From the UHGV virus genome UHGV-1578124: DNA of 16,995 bases. One strand, given 5' to 3'. Both the position numbers and the translations under genes were made by a program. Below the pieces are notes generated by a model. The model saw nothing but the letters and a program-made list of their open reading frames with translations. It searched no databases and had not been told where the DNA came from. Below are positions 11,678 through 16,911 of the stretch, one piece after another. The stretch comes from a virus. How positions within the stretch are numbered: the stretch's first letter is position 1; every line of letters starts with the position of its first letter.

Positions 11678-11707
11678 TTGACAAACACTAAAAAATAATG
11701 TTATAGT
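11678..11707 (+). promoter_or_regulatory. sigma70-like promoter TTGACA-18-TATAGT, ~27 nt before the first tRNA
   Basis: Hexamers at 11678-11683 and 11702-11707. Confidence 0.55.
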
Positions 11708-11733: not shown

Positions 11734-11813
11734 CTCCGTTTAGCTCAGTTTGGTTTAGCAGCACTTGCTTTGGGAGCAAGGGGTCGAGGGTTCAAATCCT
11801 TCAACGGAGACCA
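11734..11813 (+). tRNA. tRNA-Pro (anticodon TGG)
   Basis: Acceptor CTCCGTT/AACGGAG; anticodon stem CTTGC/GCAAG, loop TTTGGGA; T-arm GAGGG-TTCAAAT-CCTTC; discriminator A; CCA encoded. Confidence 0.85.
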
Positions 11814-11819
11814 AATTAT

Positions 11820-11897
11820 GTTCCAGTAGACAAATTGGTAAAGTCACCACACTTTCAATGTGGAGTTTTGAGGGTTCAAGTCCCTTCTGGAACGCCA
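11820..11897 (+). tRNA. tRNA-Glu (anticodon TTC)
   Basis: Acceptor GTTCCAG/CTGGAAC; anticodon stem CCACA/TGTGG, loop CTTTCAA; T-loop TTCAAGT; discriminator G; CCA encoded. Confidence 0.8.
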
Positions 11898-11901
11898 AAT
11901 T

Positions 11902-11974
11902 TGACAGAAGACCAAATACAGCAAACAACTTTTACTTTTCGCGCATAGAAAACATAAAAAGCTTGGTCTGGTCA
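11902..11974 (+). ncRNA. structured spacer element E1 (bulged two-helix family)
   Basis: Outer helix TGAC (11902-05) / GTCA (11971-74); inner helix AGACCAA (11909-15) / TTGGTCT (11963-69); unpaired AGA opposite G. Confidence 0.55.
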
Positions 11975-11982
11975 TTAAGAAT

Positions 11983-12059
11983 CGCGGGTATAGAGAAAGG
12001 GCGTCTCACATGTCTCATTAGCATGGCAACGGTTGGTTCGACTCCAACACCCGCCTCCA
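11983..12059 (+). tRNA. tRNA with CAT anticodon (Met, Ile2 or initiator)
   Basis: Acceptor CGCGGGT/ACCCGCC with C1-C72 mismatch; D-stem GAGA/TCTC; anticodon stem CATGT/GCATG, loop CTCATTA; T-arm GTTGG-TTCGACT-CCAAC; discriminator U; CCA encoded. Confidence 0.65.
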
Positions 12060-12062
12060 AAT

Positions 12063-12130
12063 TTACAGAAGGCCGTTTACAGCAATTCAAACAATTTTAT
12101 CGGAAAATTAAAATGAATACGGTCTGGTAA
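12063..12130 (+). ncRNA. structured spacer element E2
   Basis: Outer TTAC (12063-66) / GTAA (12127-30); inner AGGCCGT (12070-76) / ACGGTCT (12119-25) with one G-U pair; AGA opposite G. Confidence 0.55.
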
Positions 12131-12140
12131 TGTTAAACAT

Positions 12141-12217
12141 GGTTAGGAAGCACATAAGGCATGTGCGGTCGGCTGTTAACCGAATGGCACAGGGTTCGAA
12201 TCCCTGACTAACCGCCA
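12141..12217 (+). tRNA. tRNA-Asn (anticodon GTT)
   Basis: Acceptor GGTTAGG/ACTAACC; D-stem GCAC/GTGC; anticodon loop CTGTTAA; T-arm CAGGG-TTCGAAT-CCCTG; discriminator G; CCA. Confidence 0.8.
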
Positions 12218-12284
12218 AATTTGGGAGAGAAGCGATTGCTCACCGATTTGTAAGGTGCAAGTCCTTAGCCTGAATAGAATAAAA

Positions 12285-12373
12285 TGCGTCGTTATCCCGT
12301 AGATGGAAGCGGTGGTGACTGTAAATCACTTGTCATTACGACTCGGTAGGTTCGACTCCTTCACGGCGCACCA
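12285..12373 (+). tRNA. tRNA-Tyr (anticodon GTA), type II
   Basis: Acceptor GCGTCGT/ACGGCGC; anticodon stem GGTGA/TCACT, loop CTGTAAA; long variable arm with GTC/GAC stem; T-loop TTCGACT; discriminator A; CCA. Confidence 0.8.
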
Positions 12374-12379
12374 AATAAA

Positions 12380-12456
12380 GGTTATGTAGTTTAACTGGTC
12401 AAAATACTCCCCTGTCACGGGAGATGATGAGGGTTCGAATCCCTTCGTAACCGCCA
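12380..12456 (+). tRNA. tRNA-Asp (anticodon GTC)
   Basis: Acceptor GGTTATG/CGTAACC; anticodon stem CTCCC/GGGAG, loop CTGTCAC; T-arm GAGGG-TTCGAAT-CCCTT; discriminator G; CCA. Confidence 0.85.
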
Positions 12457-12514
12457 AATTTGAGAGGGCTTTTTAGCCCCTCCCTTAAAGAGTTCTTTCG
12501 AGTATTCTTTAAAG

Positions 12515-12594
12515 GAGCAGAAGACCAAATTCAGCAAGCAACAAAAATATTTCAAGCCAATTTAATTTGAAAAATTTAAAACTTGGTCTGGTTC
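12515..12594 (+). ncRNA. structured spacer element E3
   Basis: Outer GAGC (12515-18) / GTTC (12591-94) with one G-U; inner AGACCAA (12522-28) / TTGGTCT (12583-89); AGA opposite G. Confidence 0.5.
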
Positions 12595-12602
12595 CAACAA
12601 TT

Positions 12603-12734
12603 TTACAGAAGACCGTTTACAGCAAACAATAAACAATCTATTTCTCTTATAAAGAAAAGGCGAAGGTTCGAATCCTTCACACGTTACGGCGTGTTGGTGT
12701 AATGGAAGCACTTAAGATAAATACGGTCTGGTAA
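12603..12734 (+). ncRNA. structured spacer element E4 with internal tRNA-like module
   Basis: Outer TTAC (12603-06) / GTAA (12731-34); inner AGACCGT (12610-16) / ACGGTCT (12723-29). Apical region 12662-12711 holds a canonical T-arm, an ACACG/CGTGT hairpin and a D-arm-like GTG-TAATGGAAG-CAC. Confidence 0.55.
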
Positions 12735-12738
12735 TCCT

Positions 12739-12871
12739 CTTTGCAGTGACTTATGGAGCTAATATGTCGTCCCATGAGTGCCGATGAGTTTCTTGAGCAT
12801 GATTCTAGATTAGCTTACTAAGAGACAACTCTACAAACCCTTTAGCAAGGTTTGCGTAGGTTACTGCAAAG
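12739..12871 (+). ncRNA. candidate structured RNA closed by a long-range helix
   Basis: CTTTGCAGTGAC (12739-50) pairs with GTTACTGCAAAG (12860-71). Interior holds two overlapping mini-ORFs (12764-12787 MSSHECR, 12784-12813 MSFLSMILD), the first with GGAG 6 nt upstream. Confidence 0.35.
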
Positions 12872-12881
12872 ATGATTTAAT

Positions 12882-12957
12882 GGAAGTGTAGCAGAATGGT
12901 GATGCGGCAGACTTTTAATCTGACAGGCGACGGGTTCGAATCCCTCCACTTCTACCA
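12882..12957 (+). tRNA. tRNA-Lys (anticodon TTT)
   Basis: Acceptor GGAAGTG/CACTTCT; anticodon stem CAGA/TCTG, loop CTTTTAA; weak T-arm (GACGG...CCCTC); discriminator A; CCA. Confidence 0.7.
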
Positions 12958-12962
12958 AATTC

Positions 12963-13029
12963 GCCCTTAACTGAAGAACACATGCGCGGCTGGAGACACC
13001 CACTCAATCAGTTCTTCTACAAAGGGCAA
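12963..13029 (+). ncRNA. large imperfect hairpin
   Basis: GCCCTT + GAAGAAC (12963-79) pair with GTTCTTC + AAGGGC (13011-29) around a 4x4 internal loop; ~31-nt apical loop; no U-tract follows. Confidence 0.4.
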
Positions 13030-13037
13030 CTTATTAC

Positions 13038-13114
13038 GGTTCAGTCGCAGATAAGGTAATGCAAGGGTTTCATAAGCCCTATGAATGTGGGTTCGATTCC
13101 CACTTGAACCTCCA
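13038..13114 (+). tRNA. tRNA-Met (anticodon CAT; could be Ile2 or initiator)
   Basis: Acceptor GGTTCAG/TTGAACC; anticodon stem AGGGT/GCCCT, loop TTCATAA; T-arm GTGGG-TTCGATT-CCCAC; discriminator U; CCA. Confidence 0.75.
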
Positions 13115-13116
13115 AT

Positions 13117-13191
13117 TGTGGGTTAGCATAAATGGTAATGCAAACGGCTGATAACCGTTAGAAGAGGGTTCGATACCCTCACCTACAACCA
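13117..13191 (+). tRNA. tRNA-Ile (anticodon GAT)
   Basis: Acceptor TGTGGGT/ACCTACA; D-stem GCAT/ATGC; anticodon stem AACGG/CCGTT, loop CTGATAA; T-arm GAGGG-TTCGATA-CCCTC; discriminator A; CCA. Confidence 0.8.
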
Positions 13192-13206
13192 AATTCAATA
13201 AAGTTG

Positions 13207-13235
13207 TTGATATTGAGATGTGACTACTTTATAGT
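13207..13235 (+). promoter_or_regulatory. sigma70-like promoter TTGATA-17-TATAGT
   Basis: Hexamers at 13207-13212 and 13230-13235; would drive the ~200-nt non-tRNA segment before tRNA-Arg(TCT). Confidence 0.5.
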
Positions 13236-13241
13236 AACCTT

Positions 13242-13403
13242 AGTTTTCGTTAGCGTAGCGTCTATTTTGCAAACTTAAAAATAAATGCAAACGATAATGT
13301 TTTTCTGGCAGTAGCTTAATAGGCTAAACACCAGTGAGGTCTTCCAACCCCTCATCAAAGAATTTGGCGTACTAGCCCACGGTATGATTAATAAGGTGGG
13401 CAT
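13242..13403 (+). ncRNA. candidate small RNA / transcribed spacer
   Basis: Lies downstream of the 13207 promoter; hairpins TAGC/GCTA (13312-26), TGAGG/CCTCA (13334-53), GCCCAC/GTGGGC (13375-13401); no tRNA fold and no ORF. Confidence 0.3.
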
Positions 13404-13440
13404 CTTTAAGGGCTTTCTAAGAGAGTCTTTAAAGATTAAT

Positions 13441-13517
13441 GCACCCTTAGTTCAATTGGATAGAGCAACGGTCTTCTAAATCGTTAGTTACAGGTTCGAA
13501 TCCTGTAGGGTGTGCCA
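13441..13517 (+). tRNA. tRNA-Arg (anticodon TCT)
   Basis: Acceptor GCACCCT/AGGGTGT; D-stem GTTC/GAGC; anticodon stem ACGGT/ATCGT, loop CTTCTAA; T-arm ACAGG-TTCGAAT-CCTGT; discriminator G; CCA. Confidence 0.85.
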
Positions 13518-13618
13518 ATTAGTTAGCAGATTACTTAGACGACCTTAGCGGGTCTTCCTGTAGGGAGGTGGTCTGTATCTCATGTTTTCCAGAACATGTA
13601 AATAATCTGAGAAGGGGC

Positions 13619-13647
13619 TTGACAGTGTTGTGATAATACGGTAAGCT
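13619..13647 (+). promoter_or_regulatory. sigma70-like promoter TTGACA-17-TAAGCT
   Basis: Hexamers at 13619-13624 and 13642-13647; the block TTGACAgTGTTGTGATA...TAAG matches the 11587 element. Confidence 0.45.
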
Positions 13648-13659
13648 TCGAATTATAGT

Positions 13660-13742
13660 ATGGGACGATGTTAAGACACTAAGGCATGTGCGTAAGCCTC
13701 CAAAACTTACTCAAAGGGGTTCGATTCCTCCGTCCCATGCCA
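13660..13742 (+). tRNA. tRNA-Trp (anticodon CCA), atypical 80 nt
   Basis: Acceptor ATGGGAC/GTCCCAT (perfect); anticodon loop CTCCAAA; T-loop TTCGATT; discriminator G; CCA. There are about 7 extra nt between the acceptor stem and the D-arm. Confidence 0.6.
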
Positions 13743-13755
13743 AAGTCTCATTAGG

Positions 13756-13843
13756 GGTAGGTAGCGGCTAATGGTAGCCAAACTGTCTTGAAAACAGTTG
13801 CCACTGTAGAGATACGGTGAGGGTTCGACTCCTTTACTTACCG
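13756..13843 (+). tRNA. tRNA-Ser (anticodon TGA), type II
   Basis: Acceptor GGTAGGT/ACTTACC; anticodon stem ACTGT/ACAGT, loop CTTGAAA; variable-arm hairpin CTGTA-GAGA-TACGG; T-loop TTCGACT; discriminator G; 3' tail reads CCT, not CCA. Confidence 0.75.
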
Positions 13844-13923
13844 CCTAATAAGATTTAATTCCCGCGCTCGTCGAACAAGCTCGGTTTTTACTCGTGTATT
13901 GGCGTACACGGCACGACTATAAA

Positions 13924-13938
13924 ACACCTAGTAGGTGT
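13924..13938. promoter_or_regulatory. 15-bp palindrome ACACCTA-g-TAGGTGT (candidate protein-binding site)
   Basis: Perfect 7-bp inverted arms around a central G, in the 250-nt tRNA-free spacer 13847-14093. Confidence 0.4.
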
Positions 13939-14093
13939 CACGGAGAAGAGATAGTATCAAGCTCTCCAAAGGTTCTAGTCACCGGATTGAATAAGACTAT
14001 ATAAAGACTGTTTAGGTCTTTTTAGAGAATTGCTGAGGCATTTGATACCATTGTTGCTTTGGCGTCTTAGCAGTTCTCTACAAAGATTTAATG

Positions 14094-14171
14094 GGAGATT
14101 GACGGTAATTGGTAAACCTACCATCCTTAGAAGTTGGTGTTTGAGGGTTCGAATCCCTTGTCTCCTACCAA
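14094..14171 (+). tRNA. tRNA with anticodon TAG (Leu codon CUA), type I
   Basis: Acceptor GGGAGAT/GTCTCCT (G-U pairs at both ends); anticodon stem CCATC/GTTGG, loop CTTAGAA; T-arm GAGGG-TTCGAAT-CCCTT; discriminator A; CCA; no long variable arm. Confidence 0.6.
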
Positions 14172-14178
14172 ATTAATG

Positions 14179-14254
14179 CAGGTGTAGCAAAATGGTTATG
14201 CGGCTGACTCTTAATCAGTAAGACGATGGGTTCAATTCCCTCCACCTGTACCAA
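14179..14254 (+). tRNA. tRNA-Lys (anticodon CTT)
   Basis: Acceptor GCAGGTG/CACCTGT; anticodon stem GCTGA/TCAGT, loop CTCTTAA; same weak T-arm as Lys(TTT); discriminator A; CCA. Confidence 0.7.
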
Positions 14255-14260
14255 ATATCG

Positions 14261-14336
14261 GGGATGTAGTTTACATGGTTAAAACATAAGTTTTGCAAAC
14301 TTAAGTACAGGGTTCAATTCCCTGCTTCTCCACCAA
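14261..14336 (+). tRNA. tRNA-Ala (anticodon TGC)
   Basis: Acceptor GGGGATG/CTTCTCC with a G3-U70 wobble (the known Ala identity pair); D-stem GTTT/AAAC; anticodon stem TAAGT/ACTTA, loop TTTGCAA; T-arm CAGGG-TTCAATT-CCCTG; discriminator A; CCA. Confidence 0.85.
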
Positions 14337-14342
14337 TTAGTG

Positions 14343-14417
14343 CATCCATAGTTTAAACGGGAAAATTACAGTCTTCCAAACTGAGGTTGAGGGTTCGATT
14401 CCCTCTGGATGCTCCAA
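14343..14417 (+). tRNA. tRNA-Gly (anticodon TCC)
   Basis: Acceptor GCATCCA/TGGATGC (perfect); anticodon loop CTTCCAA; T-arm GAGGG-TTCGATT-CCCTC; discriminator U (as in Gly tRNAs); CCA. Confidence 0.85.
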
Positions 14418-14423
14418 ATAATG

Positions 14424-14500
14424 CTGCTTTCGTATAATTGGCTATTACACATCCCTTGTAAGGATGGAGATGCGGGTTCAAGTCCTGTGAGCAGCACCAA
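14424..14500 (+). tRNA. tRNA-Thr (anticodon TGT)
   Basis: Acceptor GCTGCTT/GAGCAGC; anticodon stem CATCC/GGATG, loop CTTGTAA; T-loop TTCAAGT; discriminator A; CCA. Confidence 0.8.
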
Positions 14501-14504
14501 TTTG

Positions 14505-14588
14505 AGGTCAAGTGAAAGGCCGCTTGAGTCAACTGAGACCGTAGCAAATTCCACGGAGTTGAGTTAGCGGCACAACTTCAGACCTCTT
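14505..14588 (+). ncRNA. nested-helix structured element between tRNA-Thr and tRNA-Val
   Basis: Closing helix GAGGTC (14505-10) / GACCTC (14583-88), second helix GCCGC/GCGGC, internal direct repeat TTGAGT x2; followed by a CTTTTAAAG motif. Confidence 0.4.
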
Positions 14589-14594
14589 TTAAAG

Positions 14595-14669
14595 CTCGCT
14601 TAGTTTATACGGTAAAGCCCCATCCTTACAAGTTGGTGAAGAAGGTTCAAGTCCTTCAGCGAGTACCAA
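14595..14669 (+). tRNA. tRNA-Val (anticodon TAC)
   Basis: Acceptor GCTCGCT/AGCGAGT; D-stem GTTT/AAGC; anticodon stem CCATC/GTTGG, loop CTTACAA; T-arm GAAGG-TTCAAGT-CCTTC; discriminator A; CCA. Confidence 0.8.
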
Positions 14670-14670
14670 G

Positions 14671-14748
14671 TTCCAGTATCCCAATTGGCAGAGGATGCAA
14701 GCTCAAACCTTGTATTAGTGACGGTTCGAATCCGTCTTGGAACACCAA
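14671..14748 (+). tRNA. tRNA with anticodon CAA (Leu codon UUG), type I
   Basis: Acceptor GTTCCAG/TTGGAAC; anticodon stem GCAAG/CTTGT, loop CTCAAAC; T-arm GACGG-TTCGAAT-CCGTC; discriminator A; CCA; 75 nt. Confidence 0.6.
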
Positions 14749-14762
14749 ATTAGGAGATTCCT

Positions 14763-14975
14763 ATGAAGCCTTATGGTAGACATGGTAAAGTTGAAATTGC
14801 AAGTTGTGGTTGCTGTGCTTCTCACGATGGTGAAGAAGATTACTACAAGTGGCGTACAGACCATCGTAGACGCTTTCTCAGAAGAGATAAGAAGAAAGCT
14901 AGACAGGAATCTCAAAAGAATATTGCAGAATTAGTTCAAACGGATAGAGCAGCAGCCTACGAAGTTGTTTGTTAG
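14763..14975 (+). CDS. small basic cysteine-containing protein (70 aa)
   Basis: AGGAG 5 nt upstream of ATG; contains C-G-C-C; its last ~17 codons run through the 5' two-thirds of tRNA-Arg(ACG), so the true 3' end is uncertain. Confidence 0.45.
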   Translation: MKPYGRHGKVEIASCGCCASHDGEEDYYKWRTDHRRRFLRRDKKKARQESQKNIAELVQTDRAAAYEVVC

Positions 14976-15001
14976 GGGTTCGAATCCCTTATTCTGCACC
15001 A
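14925..15001 (+). tRNA. tRNA-Arg (anticodon ACG)
   Basis: Acceptor GCAGAAT/ATTCTGC (perfect); D-stem GTTC/GAGC; anticodon stem GCAGC/GTTGT, loop CTACGAA; T-arm AGGGG-TTCGAAT-CCCTT; discriminator A; CCA. Confidence 0.85.
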
Positions 15002-15019
15002 ATTTTAGAAGGTAATTAT

Positions 15020-15247
15020 ATGCGTAAACTCATTATTGAAAGGCATAAAGATGCTGACAAGATTGCAACAACACAAGTTGGGGACACTGACTTCATTCTT
15101 GTAGGTTGGAAATGTGACCCAATAGCAGTTATGAAGGTTGTTCATGGTTTTGCAGGAATTGAATTTAATCAAATCATATTTGAAACGCTATTACCAGAAA
15201 ATCAGGATACGTGTAATAACGCATATGTCCTGACAAGAGTTCGTTAG
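15020..15247 (+). CDS. small protein (75 aa), paralog of 15292-15519
   Basis: AGAAGG ~7 nt upstream of ATG (MRKLIIERH...); the track ORF starts earlier inside the tRNA. Shares blocks with the next gene (GDT-FI-VGWK-DP, FAG-E, QVIFET-LPEN-DTCNNAY-LTRV). Confidence 0.65.
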   Translation: MRKLIIERHKDADKIATTQVGDTDFILVGWKCDPIAVMKVVHGFAGIEFNQIIFETLLPENQDTCNNAYVLTRVR

Positions 15248-15273
15248 GGGTTCGAATCCCTTATTCTGCACCA
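15244..15273 (+). pseudogene. tRNA 3' fragment (T-arm + acceptor 3' strand + CCA)
   Basis: A 31-nt stretch (GTTAGGGGTTCGAATCCCTTATTCTGCACCA, from 15243) is identical to the 3' end of tRNA-Arg(ACG) at 14971-15001; no matching 5' acceptor strand, D-arm or anticodon arm upstream. Confidence 0.65.
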
Positions 15274-15291
15274 AATTTAAAAGGGTAACTT

Positions 15292-15519
15292 ATGTTTAAA
15301 CTCATAGTTGAAAAACACCCAGAAGATGACAAGCTTGAAACAGGGAGATTTGGAGATACTTTCTTTATCAGAGTTGGCTGGAAAGCTGACCCATTAGAAG
15401 TTAGAAAGATTGTCTACAACTTTGCTGGTTTGGAATTAAAGCAAGTCATCTTTGAAACAATGTTGCCAGAAAATAAAGATACATGCAATAACGCATATAT
15501 TCTTACAAGAGTTAGTTAG
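15292..15519 (+). CDS. small protein (75 aa), paralog of 15020-15247
   Basis: AAAGGG upstream of ATG; stop codon TAG (15517-19) overlaps the first nucleotides of tRNA-Gln(TTG). Confidence 0.65.
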   Translation: MFKLIVEKHPEDDKLETGRFGDTFFIRVGWKADPLEVRKIVYNFAGLELKQVIFETMLPENKDTCNNAYILTRVS

Positions 15520-15593
15520 GGGATTAGTTTACAAGGTTAAAACCTCGGTCTTTGAAATCGAAGAAGTTGGTTCAATTCCAACATCCCCCGCCA
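15518..15593 (+). tRNA. tRNA-Gln (anticodon TTG)
   Basis: Acceptor AGGGGAT/ATCCCCC with unpaired 1-72; D-stem GTTT/AAAC; anticodon stem TCGGT/ATCGA, loop CTTTGAA; T-arm GTTGG-TTCAATT-CCAAC; discriminator G; CCA. Confidence 0.75.
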
Positions 15594-15595
15594 AT

Positions 15596-15674
15596 GCTCC
15601 ATTACTCCAATTGGCAGAGAGGCCAGACTTAAAATCTGTGTTATGTATCGGTTCGAATCCGATATGGAGTACCA
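15596..15674 (+). tRNA. tRNA with anticodon TAA (Leu codon UUA), type I
   Basis: Acceptor GCTCCAT/ATGGAGT; anticodon stem CAGA/TCTG, loop CTTAAAA; T-arm ATCGG-TTCGAAT-CCGAT; discriminator A; CCA; 76 nt with a 7-nt variable region. Confidence 0.6.
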
Positions 15675-15680
15675 AATATT

Positions 15681-15756
15681 AGCAGTGTAGCATAACTGGC
15701 AATGCTCCAGCCTCTGAAGCTGAAAGATTAAGGTTCAAATCCTTACGCTGCTGCCA
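15681..15756 (+). tRNA. tRNA-Gln (anticodon CTG)
   Basis: Acceptor AGCAGTG/CGCTGCT; D-stem GCAT/ATGC; anticodon loop CTCTGAA; T-arm TAAGG-TTCAAAT-CCTTA; discriminator G; CCA. Confidence 0.75.
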
Positions 15757-15787
15757 CTTCTAAGGGTTCTTACGAGAGTCCTTAAAT

Positions 15788-15864
15788 GTGGCCTTATCAT
15801 AAACGGATAATGACCCATGCTGTGAACATGGTCTATACGGGTTCGATTCCCGTAGGTCACCCCA
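15788..15864 (+). tRNA. tRNA-His (anticodon GTG)
   Basis: Acceptor GTGGCCT/AGGTCAC; D-stem TCAT/ATGA; anticodon stem CCATG/CATGG, loop CTGTGAA; T-arm ACGGG-TTCGATT-CCCGT; discriminator C; CCA. Position -1 is T, not the usual encoded G. Confidence 0.8.
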
Positions 15865-15871
15865 ATTCAAT

Positions 15872-15947
15872 AGCTCAATTAGCTTATATGGTTAAAGCGC
15901 GTGTCTGAAAAACATGAGAACAGGGTTCAAATCCCGATGGGCTACCA
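15872..15947 (+). tRNA. tRNA-Phe (anticodon GAA)
   Basis: Acceptor AGCTCAA/ATGGGCT; anticodon stem CGTGT/ACATG, loop CTGAAAA; T-loop TTCAAAT with a weak 3-4 bp T-stem; discriminator A; CCA. Confidence 0.65.
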
Positions 15948-15963
15948 ATTTTATAGGTGCATA

Positions 15964-16698
15964 ATGAAAGAGATGACAGGACAAGGTAAAGAGATTTTCA
16001 GTCTCCTTAAATCCGGTAACGGGTTCTCTAACCCTCTTATTACTGGTGCAGCAGTTCTTGGTGGTACAGTTGCCGCTTCTCAGTCATTAGTAACTTCTAT
16101 TGGTTCTGTATCAGACCCAGCTACCCAGCAAATTCTTATTGCTGCTGGCTTGACAACTGCCTTACTAAGCAGCTTTACAACAAGCCTTGGTAGCACCACT
16201 TCAACGACAACCACTTTAACTGACTATGGACAGAAGTCTGTAGATGAGTTTTCACAACGTATGCAAGTAGCTAAAGGTTACTCTAACGTTATGGGAGCAG
16301 CAGGTGAACAAGTCGGTTGTACACCGTTTAGTGGAATCATGGGAGTTGCTACAGAGTACGGTAACAAAGCTATGGATTTGATTAATACATCCATAGACGC
16401 TGTAAATGGCGTTCTAAGCGATTTACAAGATGCGATTGATAAAGGACTAGACACCATCTCTGAACTCGCTACACAGGCTGTTACAGTGATTAATGAGGGT
16501 ATGGCAAAGATTACCGCCTACGCTAATGAAGTGGCTCAGATGATTGCAGATGAAGCAGCCCTGATTGCTGACTACCTTAAAACGAATATTAATGGTTTTC
16601 TTGCTAATGTCTTACCAGATTGGTTTGATGATGCTTGTAAAACTGGTGTGATTGATACAATCGCAACTCCAGAGATGAAAGATGCTCTAAACAAATAA
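15964..16698 (+). CDS. hypothetical Ser/Thr/Ala/Gly-rich protein (244 aa)
   Basis: The track ORF starts at 15901 inside tRNA-Phe. First ATG after the tRNA (MKEMTGQ...) has AGGTG 4 nt upstream. Confidence 0.6.
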   Translation: MKEMTGQGKEIFSLLKSGNGFSNPLITGAAVLGGTVAASQSLVTSIGSVSDPATQQILIAAGLTTALLSSFTTSLGSTTSTTTTLTDYGQKSVDEFSQRMQVAKGYSNVMGAAGEQVGCTPFSGIMGVATEYGNKAMDLINTSIDAVNGVLSDLQDAIDKGLDTISELATQAVTVINEGMAKITAYANEVAQMIADEAALIADYLKTNINGFLANVLPDWFDDACKTGVIDTIATPEMKDALNK

Positions 16699-16701
16699 TT
16701 T

Positions 16702-16794
16702 GGAAGATTAACCCTAAAAGGTAAGGGAGTAGTTTGCTAAACTGCCAGTAACCGAGAAATCGGCGTACCAGTTCAAGTCTGGTATCTTCCTCCA
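16702..16794 (+). tRNA. tRNA-Ser (anticodon GCT), type II
   Basis: Acceptor GGAAGAT/ATCTTCC (perfect); D-stem CCC/GGG; anticodon stem GTAGT/ACTGC, loop TTGCTAA; variable-arm hairpin CCGA-GAAA-TCGG; T-arm ACCAG-TTCAAGT-CTGGT; discriminator U; CCA. Confidence 0.8.
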
Positions 16795-16801
16795 AATTAA
16801 T

Positions 16802-16878
16802 GTGTCGGTGGCAGAAATGGATTATGCGCCTGTCTGCAAAACAGGTATATAAGGGTTCAAGTCCCTTCCGATACTCCA
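16802..16878 (+). tRNA. tRNA-Cys (anticodon GCA)
   Basis: Acceptor GTGTCGG/CCGATAC; anticodon stem CCTGT/ACAGG, loop CTGCAAA; T-arm AAGGG-TTCAAGT-CCCTT; discriminator U (as in Cys tRNAs); CCA. Confidence 0.8.
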
Positions 16879-16911
16879 ATTTAAATAATATCTCTCTCAA
16901 AGTTATTATAT

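Follow-up and report, generated by a model that had tools for sequence, protein, structure and literature searches.

Diverged alleles of a small protein gene in tandem, with an orphan tRNA-Arg 3' end at their joint, in a phage tRNA array: a probable product of unequal exchange between genomes

Phage genomes evolve mosaically, by illegitimate or short-homology recombination between co-infecting relatives, and the tRNA clusters of T5-type phages contain interspersed small open reading frames (ORFs). In mitochondria, reading frames abut or overlap tRNAs, and tRNA excision removes or truncates the stop codon (tRNA punctuation). The segB gene of phage T4, which encodes a homing endonuclease, is located within the tRNA cluster (PMC2330249). 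In T6, the tRNA region undergoes SegB-dependent segmental amplification, the joint being a microhomology that tRNA-Tyr, at its 5' end, shares with segB at its 3' end; many identical 718-bp copies, with a GIY-YIG homing endonuclease inside the unit, arise in a single genome that a defence system places under selection, and SegB cleaves tRNA genes at RAWTSGAAC (Chihara et al. 2026, PMC13096335). We describe here a locus of the virus genome UHGV-1578124, analyzed as a single stretch of 16,995 nucleotides (nt; hereafter, the window), in which three small ORFs are located among tRNA genes. Two of them, ORF2 and ORF3, form a tandem with a 31-nt 3' end of tRNA-Arg(ACG) at their joint, and this arrangement most probably arose when an unequal crossover brought together two alleles from different genomes.

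The features of the locus are as follows:

14670..14747, + strand, tRNA-Leu(CAA), called by ARAGORN; upstream boundary of the slot occupied by ORF1
14763..14975, + strand, ORF1, 70 amino acids (aa), phrog_10765, with an AGGAG Shine-Dalgarno site; probable C-terminally truncated derivative of an 80-aa gene
14925..15001, + strand, tRNA-Arg(ACG), intact (ARAGORN; Rfam tRNA model, 58.3 bits, full length)
14971..14978, + strand, GTTAGGGG copy 1, in the variable loop and the 5' strand of the T-stem of tRNA-Arg; includes the ORF1 stop codon TAG
15020..15247, + strand, ORF2, 75 aa, phrog_14202, 'A' allele (ESh21 type); stop codon TAG inside the tRNA fragment
15243..15273, + strand, orphan 3' fragment of tRNA-Arg(ACG) (T-arm, acceptor 3' strand, CCA), 31/31 identical to 14971-15001
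15243..15514, + strand, putatively inserted 272-nt 'B' unit (fragment, SFPB-type spacer, ORF3), flanked by GTTAGGGG repeats, its ends ambiguous within those 8 nt
15292..15519, + strand, ORF3, 75 aa, phrog_14202, 'B' allele (SFPB/ESh19/HP1 type); stop codon T/AG overlapping tRNA-Gln, which begins at the slash
15515..15522, + strand, GTTAGGGG copy 3, the end of ORF3 and the 5' end of tRNA-Gln
15518..15593, + strand, tRNA-Gln(TTG), intact, with an A1/C72 mismatch (ARAGORN; Rfam, 56.6 bits)

The preliminary description of this DNA had recognized the tRNA-Arg 3' end as lacking its 5' half, and closer inspection agreed. Its identity with the intact gene extends one base past the 31 nt, reaching 35/37 over 37 nt, and the sequence upstream of it is the conserved 3' end of ORF2, whose stop codon the fragment supplies. 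ARAGORN was silent over 15001-15518, and a permissive Rfam scan returned at the fragment just a 13-nt T-loop match (15248-15260); as neither program found the 5' part of a cloverleaf, we rejected the idea that the fragment belongs to a full tRNA. The motif GTTAGGGG, noticed earlier as common to the three junctions, has exactly three copies in the whole window (14971, 15243 and 15515), with a spacing of 272 nt (0.26 occurrences expected; none of 200 shuffles reached three). The 272-nt units stand head to tail, with GTTAGGGG at both ends and at the internal joint, and form a tandem segmental repeat. In full, the motif is GTTnGTTAGGGG, where GTTAGTTAGGGG of the B-type tRNA-Arg and GTTCGTTAGGGG of the A-type ORF end agree at 11 of 12 positions. 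We read copy 1 as the donor-side and copy 3 as the recipient-side recombination microhomology, and the fragment as a recombination scar; at the first junction, the motif would be simply native tRNA-Arg sequence.

ORF2 and ORF3 are paralogs, as had been proposed, with 64% aa and 72% nt identity. They are not, however, each other's closest relatives, as a recent duplication in situ would have left them. ORF2 is 99% identical at the nt level to the single-copy ORF of phage ESh21, with 0 synonymous differences, and ORF3 shares 91% identity with its single-copy counterpart in SFPB, 90% in ESh19, 89% in HP1 and 84% in Sf17; the B unit as a whole is 91% identical to SFPB. ESh21, in which the arrangement is tRNA-Arg, allele A, tRNA-Gln, has 98.5-100% identity to the window over two segments, one spanning tRNA-Thr to the end of ORF2 and the other starting at tRNA-Gln and extending past tRNA-Phe, and lacks the intervening 272 nt. 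Single-unit genomes matching each side of the joint have thus been sampled: the A allele is alone in ESh21 and in three other sequences (L027, L029 and L030), and the B allele is alone in SFPB, ESh19 and Sf17. In the junction alignment, the sequence to the left of GTTAGGGG is the end of the ESh21 ORF, and to its right come the tRNA-Arg 3' end, a spacer of the SFPB/ESh19 type (AAATTTAAAAGGGTAACTT) and then the B allele. These results came from the alignments of paralogs and fragment, and from the comparison of gene order in relatives, that the preliminary description had recommended, and they showed the ORFs themselves to be conserved.

Because the similarity of each copy to a single-copy allele elsewhere far exceeds that to its neighbor, we consider it likely that the tandem consists of two pre-existing, diverged alleles of one slot, joined by an unequal crossover between genomes within GTTAGGGG. 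An ESh21-like genome carrying A and a diverged relative carrying B would have paired out of register at GTTnGTTAGGGG, which is present both in the variable loop/T-stem of tRNA-Arg and at the boundary between the ORF end and tRNA-Gln. The ESh21-like genome would thereby have gained a 272-nt unit consisting of the tRNA-Arg 3' end, the spacer and the B allele, yielding the order tRNA-Arg, A, (3' 31 nt of tRNA-Arg, B-type spacer, B), tRNA-Gln. The fragment would until recently have been part of a working tRNA-Arg in the donor, and a single recent exchange would therefore account for a non-coding 31-mer that is identical to the tRNA although the synonymous sites of the adjoining ORFs are near saturation. 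We infer co-infection as the setting of the exchange. The preliminary description had invoked duplication by recombination within tRNA T-arm sequence; the joint does lie in the T-arm motif GTTAGGGG, but duplication of the gene in place does not agree with a 72% identity between the copies set against 99 and 91% to relatives.

Several points weigh against the exchange as we reconstruct it: (i) no sampled genome is the exact B donor, the closest single-copy ORF having 91% nt identity to ORF3; (ii) the sequence downstream of ORF3 is ESh21-like rather than SFPB-like, which calls either for a further crossover, of the homologous kind, or for a mosaic donor that has not been sampled; (iii) an old duplication, followed by reciprocal losses and by gene conversion of the fragment, would formally be compatible with the same pattern; and (iv) cleavage by ribonuclease P (RNase P) would strip the stop codons from ORF1 and ORF3, so that the release of full-length proteins would need one of several possible routes (discussed later).

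Duplication of one gene in situ within this lineage, the copies then diverging to 72% nt identity, is the alternative that survives best, and we regard it as unlikely. Unequal sister-strand exchange would also produce a head-to-tail 272-nt unit with GTTAGGGG at three boundaries. Such an event, however, would leave unexplained why each copy has a closer single-copy relative elsewhere, why ESh21 lacks the second unit yet matches the flanks on both sides of it, and why the non-coding fragment is 31/31 identical to the tRNA while the ORFs have a proportion of synonymous differences (pS) of 0.55, near saturation. In addition, the B allele of HP1 is still joined to a DUF7338 gene (discussed later) and has no fragment beside it, and the tandem is restricted to a tight cluster of near-identical genomes. 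A genuinely recent duplication in situ would look, in this type of array, like one observed in CP164854.1 (L028; labeled an E. coli plasmid, yet an 88-kb phage genome), which carries the ORF2/ORF3 tandem together with a full-length ORF1 and in which tRNA-Ala(TGC) and tRNA-Gly(TCC) form a 163-nt tandem with 163/163 identity (534-859).

The tandem was found in six independent sequences: the window, Citrobacter phage BSwM KMM4, the IMG/VR UViG IMGVR_UViG_3300045988_004299, CP164854.1, and the metagenome contigs OIWQ01001088.1 and ULRN01024863.1. ORF3 is 100% identical at the nt level to that of the window in the four tandem sequences scored, and that of KMM4 (unannotated in its record) is near-identical, differing in the final codon. 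Because ORF3 is identical or nearly so across the carriers, these sequences indicate that the tandem arose once. KMM4 is the only one among 50,697 GenBank phage records to have two copies, and a scan of genome contigs for the joint returned no match. The tandem has also decayed: Logan contig L013 has a single chimeric copy, of which the first ~45 nt are A-type and the remainder, down to the terminal AGT, matches ORF3 exactly; it is therefore a collapsed tandem, reduced to one gene by recombination of ORF2 with ORF3. Other 75-aa alleles (P0002, P0004, P0006 and P0007 in alignment A2) are mosaics of A-type and B-type segments; P0004, for example, has an A-type KVVHGFAG..EF.QIIFET block within a B-type background. 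Because of these mosaics, recombination inside the 75-aa ORF seems to be frequent.

A second alternative, somewhat less probable than duplication in situ, is that the fragment has been kept as an RNA element, for example a T-arm hairpin shielding the ORF2 message at its 3' end, or a tRNA-like processing site. Five of the six tandem genomes carry an identical fragment, the fragment would provide ORF2 with a stop codon that RNase P cannot remove, and the minimum free energy fold pairs a GCAGGA within ORF2 with the acceptor 3' strand of the fragment, beside the T hairpin. The z-score of that fold is only -1.5, however, and the same GCAGGA is present in ESh21, which has no fragment; we therefore treated the tRNA-like long-range fold as a chance one. 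Neither Rfam nor ARAGORN detected a tRNA-like whole at the fragment, and the carriers are too closely related for its conservation to carry weight. The sixth carrier, CP164854.1, has a G>A change that disrupts the fragment's T-stem, and because of this change the fragment would appear not to be constrained.

A repeat running from the T-arm to the CCA is the classic footprint of integration into tRNA genes, and the fragment could on that ground be regarded as an attachment (att)-type direct repeat, left by site-specific integration of a cassette of spacer and ORF2 into tRNA-Arg. The content of the slot does vary among relatives (empty, one ORF, two ORFs, with DUF7338). What is repeated, though, is the whole 272-nt unit, the spacer and ORF that follow the fragment being homologous to those that follow the intact tRNA; on its left, the joint coincides with the native boundary between ORF end and tRNA-Gln that single-copy phages have; and no integrase or recombinase gene was found among the window ORFs scanned. 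We consider integration very improbable.

The locus shares with the SegB-driven amplification of T6 a tandem repeat inside a phage tRNA array, and a joint at which tRNA sequence shares microhomology with the 3' end of a neighboring protein gene, with truncation of the gene as a result. It differs in that the two copies here are already 28% diverged. Read on the other strand, the reported SegB cleavage motif RAWTSGAAC is the T-loop GTTCGAATC, which is located directly 3' of the joint and is found in almost every tRNA of the array. Pfam scans of the 19 larger ORFs of the window revealed no HNH, GIY-YIG or LAGLIDADG domain. In SFPB, the gene abutting tRNA-Thr, ~0.5 kb upstream of tRNA-Arg, encodes an HNH endonuclease (Pfam HNH, E=1.9e-5; annotated 'endonuclease VII'), which may be a homing endonuclease driving exchange in the region. 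Because no such gene was found among the window ORFs scanned, the copies are diverged, and the DNA corresponding to that between the SFPB HNH gene and the slot is ESh21-like in the window, the involvement of an endonuclease in forming the tandem is only a lead.

The proposed exchange also resembles ordinary mosaic evolution of phages, in that a foreign segment was joined at a few chance-homologous bases at gene boundaries while the flanks remained those of the recipient. Unlike in usual mosaicism, the donor segment was an allele of the same slot, taken out of register, so that the outcome was a tandem of alleles with a partial tRNA and not a replacement. An accessory slot can thus accumulate two diverged alleles of one gene. 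As in the tRNA clusters of T4 and T5-type phages, the protein genes lie on the tRNA strand inside the cluster, are presumably co-transcribed with the tRNAs and occupy a hot spot of exchange in mixed infection; unlike in those clusters, the families are unrelated ones (phrog_10765 and phrog_14202) and stop codons are located inside tRNA sequence. Overall, the locus represents no novel type of system but a well-documented instance, within a phage tRNA array, of short-homology deletions and, probably, of a single unequal crossover between genomes. It is an unusually legible case of remodeling, since parental types, product, microhomology and collapse product have all been sampled.

The three small ORFs had been proposed to be genes, and on the available evidence all of them are real genes, because of the codon-position pattern of their variation, their low ratios of nonsynonymous to synonymous substitutions (dN/dS), their phrog matches and the confident fold predicted for the 75-aa protein. 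The phrog_14202 profile was matched whole by both ORF2 (E=2.7e-33) and ORF3 (E=1.2e-37). Purifying selection is evident in the 75-aa genes, for which dN/dS is 0.05-0.25, with a dS of about 1 (pS 0.55) between A and B types; between ORF3 and other B alleles it is 0.06-0.19. Homologs of 33-49% aa identity and conserved length are present in Felixounavirus phages (EC6, wV8, UAB_Phi87) and in the Vequintavirinae phage Av-05. An AlphaFold2 model of the ORF3 protein reached a predicted local distance difference test (pLDDT) score of 92.8, with the order strand-strand-strand-helix-strand-helix. A Foldseek search of this model against the PDB returned nothing confident (E>0.1, template modeling score about 0.3), and a Pfam search with ORF2 and ORF3 matched no family. 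An exhaustive HMMER search placed the 75-aa family in just five representative clusters among 1.84 billion proteins and revealed no fusion of the protein to a known domain. Although overlaps between ORFs and tRNAs are usually annotation noise, and ORF1 or ORF3 is unannotated in several GenBank records, we rejected as scarcely credible the notion that the small ORFs are spurious frames over spacer and tRNA, or that the tandem is an assembly artifact, given the third-position excess and low dN/dS in both families, the distant homologs of conserved length, the confident 75-aa model, and the presence of the arrangement in six independent assemblies along with a collapse derivative.

ORF1 had been described as reading through into tRNA-Arg(ACG), and it does so: the frame meets the tRNA exactly at codon 55, and its last 16 sense codons (55-70) and its stop codon TAG (14973-14975, at the start of the T-stem) are tRNA sequence. 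The phrog_10765 profile matched ORF1 at full length (E=8.2e-50, positions 1-70 of 70) and itself contains the tRNA-encoded tail. This 70-aa form is the common one, at least 38 of 42 GenBank records with ORF1 matching it essentially at full length. Among nine distinct truncated alleles, variable sites in codons 1-54 are distributed 3/3/13 by codon position (p=0.002), and the ratio of the proportions of nonsynonymous and synonymous differences (pN/pS) is 0.04-0.47; by these measures, the truncated ORF1 is still under coding constraint. The tail has variable sites at 3/2/2 by codon position, and it evolves as tRNA, not as protein.

An 80-aa form of ORF1 (...NIAKDFRESVLSRRDTNEELKLYGVLIG), with its own TAA 1 nt before tRNA-Arg, is present in phage Silverhawkium and in four other sequences (L027-L030). 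In alignment with Silverhawkium, the window-type ORF1 lacks 82 nt, and at the break TGC is common to codons 54/55 and to the pre-tRNA base plus the first two tRNA bases. The tail lost from the window's ORF1 is homologous to a 35-aa ORF that fills the ORF1 slot in Felixounavirus EC6; the 80-aa form is therefore the older, and the ORF1 of the window derives from it by truncation, lacking its own stop codon. An 80-aa gene has thus probably lost 82 nt at the TGC microhomology, so that codon 54 came to abut the first base of tRNA-Arg and the frame continued for 16 codons to the TAG that starts the T-stem. The EC6 ORF (L009 693-815), which differs from ORF1, has an AGGAG site and lies in the gap between tRNA-Leu(CAA) and tRNA-Arg; the homology is between its tail, ...KLYGVLVG, and the C-terminus of the Silverhawkium form. 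Its stop codon is the TAG at positions 8-10 of tRNA-Arg, making it another gene that borrows a tRNA stop codon. A Pfam search with ORF1 found no match, no homologs were found beyond the Mooglevirus group, and the AlphaFold2 model (pLDDT 65, one long helix) was uninformative.

ORF3 had likewise been said to end inside the first bases of tRNA-Gln(TTG); its TAG (15517-15519) overlaps the start of the tRNA by 2 nt. The relatives suggest how this came about. In HP1, EC6, wV8 and Av-05, a 75-80-aa gene overlaps, through an ATGA-type start/stop, the DUF7338/phrog_2143 gene (about 185 aa) that follows it, and the pair is located upstream of tRNA-Gln(TTG); in Av-05, the pair is likewise inside a tRNA array. 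The DUF7338 protein has an N-terminal hydrophobic helix and is annotated 'holin' in HP1. Genes of this family outside the window include:

L003 951-1511, DUF7338/phrog_2143 gene
L004 731-1288, DUF7338/phrog_2143 gene
L011 1116-1658, DUF7338/phrog_2143 gene

The 75-aa family is present in 76 phage records and DUF7338/phrog_2143 in 555, including T4-like phages of 170-180 kb. We found no paper describing either this locus or DUF7338. The slot holds the DUF7338 gene alone in pEC-M719, is empty in Michonne (9 nt between tRNAs), and in ESh21, SFPB, ESh19 and Sf17 holds the 75-aa gene alone, ending ...AGA GTT CGT T/AG GGG, where tRNA-Gln begins with the AG of the stop codon. In HP1, the C-terminus is likewise TRVR but is encoded by other codons; the end of the protein has therefore been kept while the DNA junction changed. 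The 75-aa gene would first have stood upstream of the DUF7338 gene, the loss of which left it ending on the first bases of tRNA-Gln (...GTT CGT T/AG). The fusions of ORF1 and ORF3 to tRNAs are most probably separate, older deletions and not part of the duplication. The best explanation of the locus as a whole is a variable cargo slot in a polycistronic tRNA operon, in which small genes are packed tightly between tRNAs and short-homology deletions have probably taken their own 3' ends, leaving them with TAGs of tRNA sequence. In SFPB (L006 1-301) and pEC-M719 (L004 1-126), a protein gene ends 1-2 nt before tRNA-Thr in the array.

These results bear on annotation in four respects: (i) calls in which an ORF overlaps a tRNA are not always noise, since in this locus two conserved families lack their own stop codons; (ii) the orphan tRNA piece should be annotated neither as a tRNA nor as a functional pseudogene; (iii) ORF1 and ORF3 should be annotated; and (iv) the 75-aa gene should be linked to DUF7338, its usual partner.

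A strong sigma-70-like site (TTGACA-18-TATAGT, with TG; 11678-11707) is located directly upstream of the first tRNA of the array, and no promoter-like site was found on the + strand at 13660-16880, around the three ORFs. Because of this distribution, the tRNAs and ORFs fit a single polycistronic tRNA/mRNA transcript, from which we infer co-transcription. RNase P generates the mature 5' ends of tRNAs; cleavage there would therefore leave an ORF1 message that ends with codon 54 and an ORF3 message whose last base is the T of TAG. ORF1, ORF3 and all single-copy 75-aa alleles in the genus might then reach a proper stop codon only on transcripts left uncut by RNase P, a built-in coupling of, or competition between, tRNA maturation and protein output that we raise as a doubtful possibility. 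Possible routes to full-length protein include unprocessed transcripts, ribosome rescue or another route. If such coupling exists, processed messages would be without stop codons and subject to ribosome rescue, and the purifying selection on truncated ORF1 in about 40 genomes would mean that the coupling is tolerated or even used. As in mitochondrial tRNA punctuation, ORF3 after RNase P cleavage would end ...U, from which an A-tail could regenerate UAA; unlike in mitochondria, a different domain of life, completion of stop codons by polyadenylation would here be a hypothetical step, and ORF1 would retain no partial stop codon. The relation between RNase P and these stop codons is the only part of the locus that could exceed an evolutionary scar.

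The window represents the tRNA array of a FelixO1-like phage (Ounavirinae/Mooglevirus): ARAGORN called 25 tRNA genes on the + strand, at 11734-16878, and the region of the three ORFs is 99% identical to KMM4, with identities of 89-93% to many phages of this group from Shigella, Citrobacter and Escherichia. The A1/C72 mismatch of tRNA-Gln(TTG), at the top of the acceptor stem, is kept in the relatives examined except SFPB and KMM4, in which the tRNA start is one G shorter; in KMM4, it begins GGG, not GGGG (L001 position 1223). KMM4 also has the anticodon TAT in a gene called tRNA-Ile (L001 300-374), where the window and the other relatives have tRNA-Val(TAC). Two tRNA-like remnants in the window were uncalled by ARAGORN: 12612-12686 scored 30.9 bits with the Rfam tRNA model, just over the gathering score, and 12288-12368 scored 22.8 bits. 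An orphan T-arm, GGTTCGATTCC, is located at 13718-13728, within a stretch (~13660-13746) having GGGACG...CGTCCCATGCCA ends. Decayed or atypical tRNAs, and not ORFs, seem to occupy the long gaps of the array. The gap between tRNA-Phe and tRNA-Ser(GCT) is occupied by a gene for a DUF7217 protein of 244 aa (15964-16698), whose stop codon lies 3 nt before the next tRNA.

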